A stretch of DNA of 5,172 nt, from the IMG/VR virus record IMGVR_UViG_3300001919_000214. One strand, written 5' to 3'. Positions 943 through 4,697 of this stretch are shown piece by piece (the stretch's first letter is position 1; every line of letters starts with the position of its first letter). Below the pieces are notes generated by a model. The model searched no databases. It was not told the origin of the DNA and was given only the letters and a program-made list of their open reading frames with translations. The position numbers and the translations under genes were made by a program. This stretch comes from a virus (Duplodnaviria > Heunggongvirae > Uroviricota > Caudoviricetes).

Positions 943-1281
943 CTATTTCCCTGAATTTACGACGAAACTGTTCGAGCGGGCTGAAGCACTCATGCTCATA
1001 GCCTTCACGGAGGTAGATAACCCGTTGTGTTTCCGGCTCCCAACGAATGACTCTGACGGGCACTCCGTAGTGATCTTTGAACCAGCGGTTAACTTGTCGC
1101 AAAGGACTGTCTCCTTCTGCCGGTTGAAATCACCCACAGCCCACTCTGCAAAGCTGTGGGTTACAATTTCCCTGTCACCTGGTACATTCACTGCATAGCA
1201 ATACTCCACCTTCGCTTTTCCACCCGGTACAGGAAGTGCAATCAGTTGCGAACGACGGTAGTGTGTTGTTAAACTGTTCAT
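943..1281 (-). CDS. Hypothetical small protein (112 aa), third gene of the cro operon; possibly YmfM-like (e14 prophage) by position and length only
   Basis: ORF with ATG at 1281 overlapping the upstream stop as ATGA (1278-1281); GGAG lies 10 nt upstream. Stop at 943-945 sits 9 nt before the initiator ATG. No recognisable motif in the translation. Confidence 0.55.
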
Positions 1282-1940
1282 GCGTTAGTTTCTCCACAAC
1301 CAGAAGCAATCGACGCCACGACGCCCGGAGCTGCACACTCGCGGGCGTTACTCTTTTCCGGCGCACAAAAAACACGAAATAACAGTGTTAAATGCTCCTG
1401 CCACTTCGCCATTACCTGGTAGCTGTTCTCTTCGATTTGCTCACGCTCAGCTTGGTCAATAACTCCATCAGCAGTTGCCTTGCGTAAGTACTGAGAATGC
1501 TTGCCAATCCATTCTATTGACTCCATCAGCCGCTGATTAATGTCACCATTGTCAATGTCATCAATGACCACCAGCGGCACAAACACCCCATTACTACGAC
1601 GGGCTATTGCATCTGTTACATGCCTGGTACCACTGGCATCCTGTAAAACCATGGCCCACTCAAGTGGAAAAATTTGATCCCCACCGCTACGCAGTCTGTT
1701 ATGCAATTGATCTTTTGCTGGGGTGATATCATCAGATTTATACAAACCAAGAATTTCTGCTGCTTCCTCATAGCCATGAGGTAAATCAGCAATCGTTCTT
1801 CGTATTGCTGCCACCAGCCATGCTGGTTGTTTATCAACTTTCCATTCAGGTTCTTTACCCACGGTTAATTCCTCATTTCTGTGGTTACGTTTACGCAGCT
1901 GAACCGCTAACTTTTGAATAGCACTCAGGTAATCCATCAT
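1278..1940 (-). CDS. Hypothetical regulatory protein in the CII/YdaT/YmfL position downstream of cro (221 aa from ATG 1940)
   Basis: Long minus-strand ORF with stop at 1278-1280. Start is ambiguous: ATG at 1973 (83-bp overlap with cro), ATG-ATG at 1940/1937 (47-bp overlap, no SD), or GTG at 1862 with GAGGAA 8 nt upstream (194 aa, no overlap). Functional call rests on synteny alone. Confidence 0.55.
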
Positions 1941-2154
1941 TTGGATTGGGGTAAATATCAGGACGCAGTTCATGAGGGGTCACGGACCAGTTTCCCAACT
2001 CACAAAGTTGTAAAACCCGTTCTGACGGGACTTGATTGTTAATTACCCAATTAGCGACGGATTGAGTGGACTTAAAACCAAAGCGACGGGCTACTTCAGA
2101 TAAAGATTTTCCCGCAGCCTTTACTGCTTTCTCTGTGTAGTTTTGAGATGACAT
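1891..2154 (-). CDS. cro: Cro-like HTH regulator (YdaS/Cro family), 87 aa
   Basis: ATG at 2154 with AGGAG 6 nt upstream. Translation contains SLSEVARRFGFKSTQSVANWVINNQVPSERVLQLCELGNWSVTPHELRPDIYP, the pattern I associate with YdaS-type Cro proteins. Divergent from the CI-like gene. Confidence 0.8.
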   Translation of the reverse strand: MSSQNYTEKAVKAAGKSLSEVARRFGFKSTQSVANWVINNQVPSERVLQLCELGNWSVTPHELRPDIYPNPNDGLPECYSKVSGSAA

Positions 2155-2306: not shown

Positions 2307-3011
2307 ATGGTAGAAGAACAGAAGTATCCAGATTTCGCCAAGAGACTAAACGAGCTAATGACAAACAAGGGAATTTCTGTCACCCAACTCAAAAGTCTTG
2401 TGGGCGTTACATATGAAATGGCGCGGCGATACACAATCGGCGCTGCGAAGCCTCGTGCCTCTGTCATGAATAAACTTGCATTGGCTCTGGGGGTATCAGC
2501 TTCATATTTAGAATATGGTGTTGGCGAGAGAGAAGGATGTAAGGAAATGGCAAGCATCCCCAATCCAACGAAACCCGATGTATACAGGATAGAAGTTTTG
2601 GATCTTAGCGTTAGCGCAGGACCTGGGACCTATATGCTTTCAGACTATGTTGATGTGCTCTACGCCATTGAGTTCACAACAGAACATGCCCGTTCTCTTT
2701 TCGGCAACCGTTCTCAGAATGATATTAAGGTTATGACTGTAAATGGCGATAGTATGTCCCCTACACTCGTTTCCGGAGACCGACTGTTTGTCGACATTTC
2801 TGTTCGTCACTTCCAGACTGATGGAGTTTACTCTTTCGTTTACGGTAAGACTTTTCATGTCAAACGTCTTCAAATGCAAGGTGACAAGCTAGCCGTTCTT
2901 TCGGATAACCCCGCCTATGAGAAATGGTACATCGATGAAAAATCGCAGGATCAGCTTTATGTAATGGGCAAGGCGTTGATTCACGAATCTATAAAATACA
3001 ACCGATTGTAA
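2307..3011 (+). CDS. cI: CI-type prophage repressor: N-terminal XRE-family HTH plus C-terminal LexA/S24 autopeptidase domain (234 aa)
   Basis: HTH region FAKRLNELMTNKGISVTQLKSLVGVTYEMARRY; probable Ala-Gly cleavage site in VSAGPG; catalytic Ser in GDSMSPTL and Lys in FHVKRLQ, arranged as in LexA, lambda CI and P22 C2. Stop TAA at 3009-3011. In-frame ATG at 2271 is an alternative start; neither has a strong SD. Confidence 0.9.
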   Translation: MVEEQKYPDFAKRLNELMTNKGISVTQLKSLVGVTYEMARRYTIGAAKPRASVMNKLALALGVSASYLEYGVGEREGCKEMASIPNPTKPDVYRIEVLDLSVSAGPGTYMLSDYVDVLYAIEFTTEHARSLFGNRSQNDIKVMTVNGDSMSPTLVSGDRLFVDISVRHFQTDGVYSFVYGKTFHVKRLQMQGDKLAVLSDNPAYEKWYIDEKSQDQLYVMGKALIHESIKYNRL

Positions 3012-3055
3012 AACTCAATCCTTTCAGGATTAAAAGATCTAAAAGGATAATAATA

Positions 3056-3454
3056 ATGAAATCTGAACTATTTCATAGCGAAGCAAATTCAGAAATTATC
3101 ACTGCAGATGAGTTTATTGATTTCATAAACTCTTTCAAAAAGCCTTTAATTTGCCAAATTTGCGGAAATCAATCATGGAGTGTAGTCGGTACTCTAGAAC
3201 TTGAAGTTGAAGACAATCAGCCAAAACATCACGTAATNNNNNNNNNNNNNNNNNNNNNNNNNNNNNNNNNNNNNNNNNNNNNNNNNNNNNNNNNNNNNNN
3301 NNNNNNNNNNNNNNNNNNNNTAAATTATCCTGGTGGTATGCCGCTGTTTCGAATCACCTGTGATCACTGTGCACATGTACTTCTTTTTTCTTATAAAAAA
3401 GCTAGATCATTGATCCAAAAAAGAAAAAATGAAAAAGAAGAGGATGGGAAATGA
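3056..3454 (+). CDS. Hypothetical small protein with two CxxC pairs (zinc-ribbon-like), 132 aa if continuous across the N-run
   Basis: ATG at 3056 with AGGA 8 nt upstream. CQICGN before the gap and CDHCAH after it lie in the same frame, supporting one protein. Basic C-terminal tail. Continuity across the 83 masked bases cannot be verified. AT-rich. Confidence 0.5.
   Translation: MKSELFHSEANSEIITADEFIDFINSFKKPLICQICGNQSWSVVGTLELEVEDNQPKHHVXXXXXXXXXXXXXXXXXXXXXXXXXXXXXNYPGGMPLFRITCDHCAHVLLFSYKKARSLIQKRKNEKEEDGK
3238..3320. other. Run of 83 N inside the putative zinc-ribbon gene
   Basis: Directly visible. Confidence 1.
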
Positions 3455-4083
3455 CGCGACCTTATCTCAGAGCAGTACCAAACTGTGGATCTGGTATTGA
3501 TAAGTGTGACCTTTACCCCAATGTTAAGAACAGGCTGCGCGTCGGTATAGAAGAAATGTATACTGATTTTATCGAATCCGCAGATGAAACTTACAAAACT
3601 GATGGGGGAAATAAAATGTCATCAGTTAGTCGAGAAGAAATTCAAGCACTTTTAGCTGCCAATAAAGCAGAAATGGAGTCCATTGCATCCTCTATTAGAG
3701 TTGAAATGGCTTTATCTCGCGAGAACACAAACGTTCAGCTAGCATCTCTAAATTCAGCCATCAATTCTATCTCTTCGAAAATCGAAGGCAAAATGGACAG
3801 TGTTGACGGGGATGTGAAGGCCATCAATGGTAGATTCGAAGGTATACAAGGCCAAATTACTGGAATAAATACAGCCATTAGTGGTATTCAATCTGGAATT
3901 TCTACCAGACTTGCTATTTTTGGAGTTATCATTGCGGTCATAGTTGCATTACCTAGCATAATTTCTGCTTTTAAAGATACTTCGCCAGTAGTTCAACCAG
4001 TTACACAACAATCAAGTGTTAAACATCTCAACCAAGAACCAATTACTCCACAAGTATTACCTCCGCAGGGAAAAGCAAACTAA
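3451..4083 (+). CDS. Hypothetical coiled-coil protein with a single C-terminal transmembrane helix (210 aa; alternative internal start at 3616 gives 155 aa)
   Basis: ATG at 3451 overlaps the upstream stop as ATGA, with GAGGA 6 nt upstream. Internal ATG at 3616 has GGGGGAA 5 nt upstream. Heptad-like Ile/Ser/Gly-rich segment, hydrophobic stretch LAIFGVIIAVIVALPSIISAF, then a Pro/Gln-rich tail. Architecture is reminiscent of XhlA-like or exclusion-type membrane proteins; this is low-confidence pattern matching. Confidence 0.65.
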   Translation: MTRPYLRAVPNCGSGIDKCDLYPNVKNRLRVGIEEMYTDFIESADETYKTDGGNKMSSVSREEIQALLAANKAEMESIASSIRVEMALSRENTNVQLASLNSAINSISSKIEGKMDSVDGDVKAINGRFEGIQGQITGINTAISGIQSGISTRLAIFGVIIAVIVALPSIISAFKDTSPVVQPVTQQSSVKHLNQEPITPQVLPPQGKAN

Positions 4084-4106
4084 ACCGGCTTTATGCCGGT
4101 TTTTTT
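4083..4106 (+). terminator. Rho-independent terminator closing the cI-linked operon
   Basis: Stem AACCGGC (4083-4089) pairs with GCCGGTT (4095-4101) around loop TTTAT; T-run continues to 4106, immediately after the stop at 4081-4083. Confidence 0.7.
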
Positions 4107-4198
4107 CTATACAAACGCCCCCCCTTTGTCTTGAATCACATCACAACACATTTAAAAAACATATTAAATTCAAAGCATTAAACGCATCAACGCATACC

Positions 4199-4251
4199 NN
4201 NNNNNNNNNNNNNNNNNNNNNNNNNNNNNNNNNNNNNNNNNNNNNNNNNNN
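4199..4251. other. Run of 53 N in the intergenic region after the terminator
   Basis: Directly visible. Confidence 1.
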
Positions 4252-4421
4252 ATTATCTACTTTTAGTTGTTGATTTTTGCTACTTTTGGTAGCAGAATTA
4301 TTTTAACGACAACGAACAGGCAGGACGCCCACGAAGTAGCCGCCTGGGGCATATGAAGTCCAGGATGATTCGTTGAGTCATGTTGTGCCACCAGGCACTC
4401 ATGTTAAAGCAGGTGTATGAA

Positions 4422-4697
4422 ATGAAAGTCCAGATTTTAAACAATAACTGTGAAGTCGTTTGGTCATACGACATAGCCGCCCCTGTAGATCAGAGCGGCG
4501 ATAGCTGGACCAATGGGAAACATCAGATTATGGCTGGAGTTGTGTTCTCTTTACGCCGTGCTTTGGAACAGGCTGAAGTATTTCCATCAGACCCTGAATG
4601 GAAATGGCCTTTTTCTATTTGTCCAAATTCGGAGAGCACATTTCAGAAAATTGGTCAGAAAGTCGCACTCGAAGAGCATCAGCCAACTGTTTCCTGA
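4422..4697 (+). CDS. Hypothetical protein (91 aa from ATG 4422; the ORF extends in frame to ATG 4380)
   Basis: AGGTG lies 6 nt upstream of ATG 4422. Codon pattern looks coding. No recognisable motif; not Arg-rich, so not an N-type antiterminator. Its last 83 bp overlap the convergent minus-strand ORF. Confidence 0.4.
   Translation: MKVQILNNNCEVVWSYDIAAPVDQSGDSWTNGKHQIMAGVVFSLRRALEQAEVFPSDPEWKWPFSICPNSESTFQKIGQKVALEEHQPTVS

Follow-up and report, generated by a model that had tools for sequence, protein, structure and literature searches.

RexA and RexB of phage lambda form the oldest known abortive-infection system, the mechanism of which is still unclear. The interval between cI and N is a mosaic hotspot; rexAB and bstA, which occupy it, share a transcript with the repressor in lysogens and serve phage exclusion (PMC8585504, PMC7067206, both citing Degnan et al. 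2007). For BstA of prophage BTP1 it was shown experimentally that the protein acts by abortive infection, and the slot downstream of cI is described as a defence hotspot (PMC8585504). We describe here a pair of genes, open reading frames (ORFs) 1 and 2, in a stretch of 5,172 nucleotides (nt) from the IMG/VR virus record IMGVR_UViG_3300001919_000214 (Caudoviricetes). The whole stretch, in the following called the window, comes from a lambdoid Escherichia coli prophage, of which it is the immunity region, and the ORF1-ORF2 cassette lies directly behind its repressor gene.

The cassette looks like a prophage exclusion module of the Rex/Sie kind that is a member of no known family. With a probability of about 0.4 we read the pair as a lysogen-expressed phage-exclusion module with abortive-infection-type action at the inner membrane, the function being deduced from position and architecture. 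An exclusion module with ORF2 as the effector and the partner as the carrier of specificity is proposed because the cassette is found in exclusion-gene slots, because the architecture is tail-anchored, and because a fixed effector is combined with a fast-swapping partner and a docking peptide. Within this reading an abortive-infection-type action is favoured since the variable parts are all cytoplasmic.

With lambda RexA and RexB the cassette shares the slot and the orientation (3' of cI, between the right and left operators OR and OL, with a terminator before the promoter pL) as well as the composition of a two-gene unit with one cytoplasmic and one inner-membrane protein. RexA, however, has 279 amino acids (aa), whereas the cassette partners have 84-150 aa and fall into three unrelated families. 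RexB is a polytopic protein of 144 aa with about four transmembrane (TM) helices, in contrast to ORF2 with its one C-terminal TM helix and a cytoplasmic region of 150 residues. Rex has no counterpart to the variable N-terminal segment of ORF2, the putative docking site, or to its internal start. BstA also lies 3' of cI and shares its promoter (PMC8585504), but it is a single cytoplasmic protein localising to phage replication sites, without homology to the cassette and without a membrane component.

Two exclusion proteins of phage P22 were compared in addition. SieA resembles ORF2 in being an inner-membrane protein of lysogens, and the pair of a P22-like locus (L022) occupies the position of orf59a and sieA in P22; sieA, however, is a single gene, has a promoter of its own and shows no sequence similarity to the cassette. 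SieB is a prophage membrane protein with an annotated in-frame internal start, a feature that is predicted for ORF2 as well; in the P22 annotation its short product Esc is given as shielding the phage against the exclusion protein that it encodes itself. Unlike the cassette, sieB of P22 and of lambda is a single gene; it belongs to the pL operon and has a promoter of its own.

Position of the cassette in the immunity region

The block from 2900 to 4300 shares at least 99% identity with 9 of 5426 complete E. coli genomes, in which both genes are annotated as hypothetical. All protein analyses were made with the copy of an intact relative, NZ_AP045768.1 (locus L001). There, the cro-like gene is followed by a divergent XRE/S24 repressor, ORF1, ORF2 and the early-left genes. 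The features of the window that define the position of the cassette are the following:

2187-2199, 2256-2268 and 2301-2313: OR-like operators, CTACTT-N4-TAG sites with the N run 2203-2250 in between
2307-3011, plus strand: CI-type lysogeny repressor, 234 aa; domains HTH_3 and Peptidase_S24 (Pfam, 1.6e-16 and 1.8e-05); phrog_4 'transcriptional repressor' (9e-50); a RefSeq coding sequence in L001
3056-3454, plus strand: ORF1, Cys4 protein of partner class C1; 120 aa in intact copies, with the N run 3238-3320 inside the window copy
3451-4083, plus strand: ORF2, tail-anchored coiled-coil membrane protein of 210 aa; phrog_5820 (6.8e-69 over 194 of 200 positions)
4082-4109, plus strand: intrinsic terminator closing cI-ORF1-ORF2; in L001 at 13147-13167 plus T run, with an 8-base-pair stem, 5 GC pairs and a 5-nt loop
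4257-4269 (CTACTTTTAGTTG) and 4280-4292 (CTACTTTGGGTAG): OL-like operators, just 3' of the N run 4199-4251

The window contains runs of N at 2203-2250, 3238-3320 (83 N) and 4199-4251. In the nine prophages with at least 99% identity the corresponding stretches measure 2, 47 and 6 nt, the window runs being 46, 36 and 47 nt longer. The first and the third run abut the operator clusters, where the sites are spaced 23 base pairs apart.

The motif CTACTT-N4-TAG occurs at 8 sites in 25 kilobases (kb) against 2.7 expected, and a count of 8 was reached in 1 of 100 shuffles. All 8 sites fall into two clusters of L001, 11238-11414 and 13275-13310, which correspond to the interval between the cro-like gene and cI and to the region just past the ORF2 terminator. 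These clusters are best read as OR and OL. Because operator-like sites are present on both sides, the order cI-ORF1-ORF2-terminator would lie between OR and OL-like clusters, as does cI-rexA-rexB-Timm in lambda. Terminator-like sites are more frequent than expected (5 versus 1.4), and the one at 4082-4109 is the counterpart of lambda Timm; in HK244 a Timm is annotated at the matching relative position.

The gap between cI and ORF1 measures 44 nt. It contains no terminator, and promoter-like matches are at chance level (7 found, 5.3 expected), from which it follows that ORF1 and ORF2 are likely transcribed from the repressor promoter. AAGGA precedes the ORF1 start. ORF2 overlaps ORF1 in ATGA at 3451-3454, with GAGGA located 6 nt 5' of its start. 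The GC content of the intact copy is 0.353 in ORF1 and 0.397 in ORF2, compared to 0.443 in cI and 0.52 and 0.475 in the 5-kb flanks. An earlier note on this DNA, made from the letters and a list of ORFs, had described a translationally coupled pair, markedly AT-richer than its flanks, directly behind a CI-type repressor and closed by an intrinsic terminator, and had compared its position with that of rexAB and sieB. The repressor domains, the overlap, the stem of the terminator with its T run and the base composition all agree with this description; the position is borne out by the flanking operators, by the replacement of rexAB in HK542 and HK244, by gp49 and gp48 of HK97 and by the P22-like sieA slot, all of which are treated below. 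The coordinates given there for the two ORFs could be retained as well. The length of 132 aa that the window copy suggests for ORF1 could not: the N run in the window is longer than the sequence in the relatives, with 83 N in place of 47 nt in the nine prophages, and thereby inflates the reading frame, the true length of which is 120 aa.

In the Salmonella prophage ST64B two uncharacterised genes are located 3' of the repressor and are strongly expressed under peroxide and nitric oxide stress (Owen et al. 2020, PMC7067206). This gene pair occupies the same slot as the cassette of the window. A tblastn search of the cassette proteins against phage genomes returned no Salmonella phage record.

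Anatomy and distribution of the two gene families

ORF1 matches phrog_4293, a PHROG of unknown function, with 1.7e-33 over 121 of 124 positions. Its cysteines C33, C36, C90 and C93, arranged in two CxxC knuckles as in zinc-ribbon proteins, are invariant in 9 family members with identities down to 19%. The Cys4 partner family is small (10 clusters), and tblastn of ORF1 against phage genomes gave no match. Two more Cys4 proteins were looked up, and each is located between a repressor and an ORF2-family gene. ORF1 and ORF2 are genuine genes and not chance ORFs, as each has a full-length PHROG match and the two are found together in numerous genomes.

ORF2 is composed of a variable N-terminal extension, a long conserved helix that continues into the membrane segment, and a short tail. 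The parts, with the predicted local distance difference test (pLDDT) of the AlphaFold2 model where available, are:

3451-3615, plus strand: N-terminal extension, residues 1-55; hypervariable, predicted disordered (pLDDT ~42), with the class-C1 motif IDKCDLYPN
3604-3618, plus strand: candidate start of a short isoform, the in-frame internal ATG at 3616-3618 (M56), preceded by GGGGGAA
3625-3909, plus strand: conserved cytoplasmic helix/coiled coil, residues 59-153; signature SREE(I/L)xAxLxxNKAE, pLDDT >90 at residues 61-110
3910-3972, plus strand: single TM helix, residues 154-174, LAIFGVIIAVIVALPSIISAF; Kyte-Doolittle 2.73, next best elsewhere 0.62
3973-4080, plus strand: Pro/Gln-rich tail of 36 residues, predicted periplasmic, with the family motif QPIIIQVPQ

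In the AlphaFold2 model residues 1-55 are disordered, residues 61-174 form one continuous helix and the tail is again disordered; the predicted template modelling score is 0.26. The Gly-rich heptads INGRFEG IQGQITG INTAISG IQSGIST (residues 118-173, window 3802-3969) run directly into the TM helix. About 150 of the 210 residues are cytoplasmic, and the conservation is strongest in the cytoplasmic helix, residues 58-110. A small four-Cys protein next to a coiled-coil protein with one C-terminal TM helix had been proposed in the earlier note, and the invariant cysteines, the single hydrophobic segment at 154-174 and the helix at 61-174 are in line with this; the division into a cytoplasmic partner and a membrane protein likewise fits the predicted anatomy.

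In the tail, P188 and I191 are near-invariant in the family, and HK97 gp48 retains APIIIQVPTQQP although its overall identity is 27%. The tail gives rise to a different explanation, superinfection exclusion at the envelope. Here the anchor and the periplasmic tail of ORF2 would block the entry of DNA, as known for P22 SieA, T4 Imm and HK97 gp15, the partner would be an assembly or stability factor, and no cell death would be involved. It is consistent with this explanation that P-I-I-I-Q-V-P is kept even in such a distant protein as HK97 gp48, that the L022 pair is located in the P22 sieA slot, and that ORF2 is an inner-membrane protein with a single TM helix, presumably expressed in the lysogen. 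The bulk of ORF2 is cytoplasmic, however, its most conserved part is the cytoplasmic helix and not the tail, and there is no similarity to SieA. A rapidly exchanged cytoplasmic partner with a co-varying docking segment would also be hard to explain by a block of entry, and we regard this explanation as unlikely.

An exhaustive search with the ORF2 profile delivered 114 representative clusters at E<=1e-10. Most representatives are 150-270 aa long; their first 40-120 residues vary, and they share the signature R-E-E-L-D-A-K-L-x-x-N-K-A-E and a single C-terminal TM helix. The family forms about 40 clusters at 90% identity and is found in the genera Escherichia, Enterobacter, Klebsiella, Cedecea, Kosakonia, Yersinia, Leclercia, Serratia, Xenorhabdus and Salmonella. 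ORF2-like DNA is present in 65 of 5426 complete E. coli genomes (about 1%).

Among sequenced phages, HK97 has its pair in the interval from cI (gp50) to N; it consists of gp49 with 88 aa and gp48 with 216 aa, gp48 matching phrog_5820 with 9.6e-69. In HK542 and HK244, which have the lambda immunity, an ORF2 homolog is located between cI and Timm/pL in replacement of rexA/rexB. The core of the HK542 protein is 77% identical to that of the window. The layout is cI, partner, effector, N in all three phages, and their cassette ORFs are all annotated as hypothetical. The partners differ from that of the window in class, HK97 having a class B and HK542 a class A protein in place of the Cys4 protein.

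The genomic context was surveyed in 21 tabulated loci, with the repressor domains confirmed. In 19 of them the ORF2-family gene follows a lysogeny repressor at a distance of 1-2 genes on the same strand, so that the co-occurrence with repressors in other prophages, put forward as a check in the earlier note, was found. The repressors include cI-type proteins with helix-turn-helix (HTH) and S24 domains (nine immunities, including those of lambda and HK97), short Rac-type HTH proteins facing YdaS/YdaT, and Mnt. In L022, with a P22-like immI and Mnt, the pair is located between mnt and gene 16, the slot of P22 sieA. An extra gene of 124 aa with an N-terminal hydrophobic segment occurs between cI and the partner in Yersinia enterocolitica (L017, 3214-3588), and some cassettes therefore consist of three genes.

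Two further copies from Xenorhabdus are not among the tabulated loci. The copy of X. anantnagensis (L004) lies beside tail-type genes, with a long tape-measure-like ORF and, as a further neighbour, a DUF6694 lipoprotein-like gene. That of Xenorhabdus ehlersii (L007, 5818-6294) ends before the TM helix, has an insertion sequence transposase upstream and looks like a decaying copy.

A place on the repressor transcript would also suit lysogenic-conversion cargo unrelated to phages, a membrane protein for host physiology or fitness (stress, envelope, virulence) that would profit from a promoter active in lysogens. Prophages do express morons with a part in host fitness, lom and bor of lambda among them (PMC7067206), the block is AT-rich compared to its flanks, as is usual for morons, and no defence homology was found with PADLOC. 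On the other hand, the family was met in prophage and phage contexts only in the survey, the characterised occupants of the slot are exclusion systems, and the hypervariable partner and docking segment with their combinatorial shuffling suggest an arms race and not a housekeeping function for the host. Cargo of this kind appears very unlikely.

Exchangeable partners and the internal start codon

The gene directly 5' of ORF2 is always small (84-150 aa in the 21 loci), and the distance from its stop to the ORF2 start ranges from -35 to +36 nt in 21 of 21 loci, with an overlap in 9. At least three partner families can be distinguished: class A of about 144 aa (HK542, phrog_5893), class B of about 84-99 aa (HK97 gp49 and the P22-like locus) and class C, the Cys4 proteins (window). 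Remote homology among the classes was considered and rejected, the hhalign probability being below 1% for every pair of classes. None of the classes matched an entry of Pfam, NCBIfam or PADLOC.

Partners and cores are combined freely. Each of the three core subtypes pairs with at least two partner classes; the Serratia-type core is found with class A in Serratia, with class B in Buttiauxella and with class C in Enterobacter hormaechei. Between the window and L021 the partner score is 375 and the core score 297 (close partners, distant cores), whereas between the window and HK542 the values are 28 and 482 (unrelated partners, close cores). DNA similarity between the window and HK542 is confined to 3632-3947; it starts a few codons past the boundary of extension and core and stops inside the TM helix.

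The N-terminal extension of ORF2 varies with the partner. Its length is 69-109 residues where the partner belongs to class B, but 39-59 where it belongs to class A or C, and it carries [VI]DKxD[LI]xP with C1 partners, HLQAVDxAYL with C2 and RLxV[VI]xGxDF with class A. The possibility that the extension is an untranslated spacer and M56 the true start was rejected, because the frame of the extension is open in 21 of 21 loci while alternative frames over the same stretches are open in 0 of 42, and in view of the close coupling between partner stop and ORF2 start. These comparisons show that the extension is inherited with the partner and not with the core. The simplest reading is that it would be the docking site of the partner, and that partner and docking peptide would move as one recombinational module.

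At the boundary of extension and core an in-frame ATG or GTG is located 1-6 codons before the core in 18 of the 18 loci checked at the DNA level, the 3 Val codons among them all being GTG. A Shine-Dalgarno core of 4-6 nt at suitable spacing was seen in about 13 of the 18. At the protein level, of the 80 family proteins that have an extension, 64 carry a Met no more than 8 residues away from the motif, compared to the 11% that the Met frequency elsewhere in the extension would predict; the remaining 16 have a Val near the motif, and 5 further members begin at that point. These statistics are to be read with the caveat that the sequences are interrelated and the flanking residues rich in Glu and Gly, and for this reason a short isoform without the docking segment is regarded as plausible and treated as hypothetical.

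In E. hormaechei (L029, 3350-3841) the gene caller took the internal ATG, with AGGAG upstream, and reported a protein of 114 aa. Upstream of this ATG, however, the frame stays open back to a GTG overlapping the stop of the Cys4 gene, and this stretch encodes the class-C1 docking motif VDKDDLYPHN. Some of the short family members in databases may accordingly be mis-started or be real short forms.

A small upstream gene coupled to a membrane protein, with mix-and-match partners, is also typical of toxin-antitoxin (TA) modules, and the dual start resembles the control of lethal membrane proteins by holin/antiholin and SieB/Esc. The pair could accordingly be a TA-like or regulatory module for the prophage itself, in which the partner would neutralise ORF2, a membrane toxin or modulator of growth. 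Such a module would stabilise the prophage or tune induction and the decision between lysis and lysogeny, and action against other phages would not be its primary role. A regulatory role of Rex proteins is documented in two sources (10.1101/2021.04.19.439022, PMC11077077), in the second of which RexA is stated to bias the lambda switch. Against a TA-like module, no recognisable DNA-binding or antitoxin domain is present in any partner; for type II TA systems in particular, no Pfam domain was found in any partner class, and ORF2 matches no toxin family. Addiction would be of little gain to chromosomally integrated prophages. Moreover, TA-like modules of prophages often act in abortive infection, and to this extent the explanation overlaps with the exclusion module preferred here. 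As a separate explanation we consider it improbable.

Proposed action, neighbouring genes and significance

Under the exclusion reading, ORF2 would be the conserved effector, tail-anchored in the inner membrane, with a long cytoplasmic helix that probably oligomerises as a coiled coil and continues into the TM helix. ORF1 would be an exchangeable cytoplasmic specificity or sensor subunit, docked on the disordered N-terminal extension of ORF2, and would keep the effector inactive until an infecting phage provides the trigger. Triggered ORF2 would then compromise the inner membrane, and the infection would abort. The internal start may yield a short isoform without the docking segment, which could tune or counteract full-length ORF2, comparable to Esc and SieB in P22. 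Holin/antiholin pairs are a further precedent for dual-start control of membrane-active phage proteins. A more far-reaching version, which is speculative and rather unlikely as a whole, would be a plug-and-play family of prophage immunity, in which one phrog_5820 effector is armed by interchangeable, unrelated sensors, each with its own docking peptide fused by recombination at the internal start codon, while the same codon gives an undockable isoform that sets the firing threshold or confers self-immunity.

Several points weigh against an exclusion module of this kind. A tail-anchored protein with one TM helix would be an atypical channel former. For the conserved motif in the periplasmic tail, a role at the surface or in blocking entry would be a better fit than cytoplasmic sensing. 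By analogy with RexA, genes in this slot can be regulatory rather than defensive. Two of the 21 loci, L009 and L010 (Serratia, Providencia), are without a repressor, and so are the two Xenorhabdus copies L004 and L007 in their upstream regions. No matching fold was found for ORF1 in the PDB, and the literature searched yielded no experimental work on HK97 gp48/gp49 or on proteins homologous to them.

Comparison with known exclusion and defence proteins yielded no relatives either. The profiles of ORF2 and of partner classes A, B and C all scored at or below zero bits against RexA and RexB, with -0.2 bits for ORF2 against RexB; there was no Rex match in Pfam or PADLOC. Against P22 SieB and SieA the ORF2 profile scored -3.3 bits (hmmsearch) and -3.4 bits, the partner profiles were again at or below zero bits, and tblastn of ORF2-family queries gave no match in P22. 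The statement of the earlier note that neither protein resembles RexA, RexB or another exclusion protein thus holds at the level of profiles. In PADLOC-DB v2 there were 0 matches for ORF1 and coiled-coil noise only for ORF2 (PbeC, E=0.0014, 15 bits); eight partners and two divergent effectors gave 0 matches.

The hint at pore formation is weak and restricted to a subtype, and it counts among the same reservations. A PDB search with the ORF2 profile returned coiled-coil noise (HA2, ApoE, lamin) and weak matches to SmhB (E=0.017, high bias) and AhlB (E=0.9), and residues 118-173 matched MakE of NCBIfam with E=1.2e-4 and 21.2 bits, compared to a cut-off of 360. The weak local similarity concerns the membrane-inserting head of the tripartite alpha-pore-forming toxins (SmhB, AhlB, MakE; ClyA family). 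These toxins differ from ORF2 in being helical bundles of about 350 aa, and the similarity is missing from HK97 gp48. A membership of ORF2 in the pore-forming toxins was rejected, the scores being far under the thresholds and HK97 gp48 being without a match. The similarity to SmhB and MakE is probably compositional and may serve as a lead on juxtamembrane behaviour, not as a sign of homology. Likewise, the Pfam matches of ORF2 to Baculo_PEP_C, NPV_P10 and DUF1664 are below the cut-off and were taken as compositional, and an XhlA-type hemolysin was rejected, with phrog_1193 at E=0.14 as the only match.

Outside the cassette, the window contains the following genes of the immunity region:

1278-1973, minus strand: CII-like regulator, 231 aa, with a Phage_CP76 domain; annotated in L001 as YmfL family
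1891-2154, minus strand: Cro-like regulator with a YdaS-type HTH, divergent from the repressor; Pfam YdaS_toxin (4.6e-11), annotated in L001 as transcriptional regulator
4422-4697: gene of 91 aa, the first past the OL-like operators; phrog_3195 (1.1e-62), function unknown

With a YdaS-type Cro and a Phage_CP76 protein, the cII/cro set of this prophage is not lambda-type. On one side the L001 flank consists of terminase, lysis genes, Q, replication O, the cII-like and the cro-like regulator. No N-like antiterminator was recognised in the window, and an Rfam scan of the whole window detected no RNA family. A tandem repeat of 4.3 copies of the 15-nt unit CAGATTTTGACGGGT is located at 561-624 within a minus-strand replication-O-like gene and, by analogy with lambda, probably represents the iterons of the origin.

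Both genes of the cassette are already known as hypothetical proteins and are contained in PHROGs of unknown function. New are the cassette itself with its conserved effector, which includes HK97 gp48, and its regular occurrence behind lysogeny repressors. New, too, are the three unrelated families of partners, the N-terminal segment that is transferred along with them, and the conserved internal start. None of these cassette features was found described in the literature searched. Four of the observations go beyond the earlier note, namely ORF2 as the conserved anchor, the at least three partner families, the N-terminus that travels with the partner, and the conserved internal start.

New candidate defence genes in the cI-N hotspot are not surprising per se. 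The cassette is a third, widespread occupant of the lambdoid cI-N slot after RexAB and BstA, and it is also present in the P22 sieA slot. HK97 carries the cassette and offers excellent genetics, which makes the pair readily testable. If it does not serve defence, it is still a conserved, lysogen-expressed membrane module, with ORF2-like DNA in about 1% of the complete E. coli genomes and in numerous further Enterobacterales. Should it be an exclusion system, its three-part layout of fixed membrane effector, co-transferred docking peptide and exchangeable partner would show how sensor specificity can be swapped onto a fixed effector, with the recombination joint visible in the sequences, and SieB/Esc would no longer be the one natural case of a prophage membrane protein under dual-start control.

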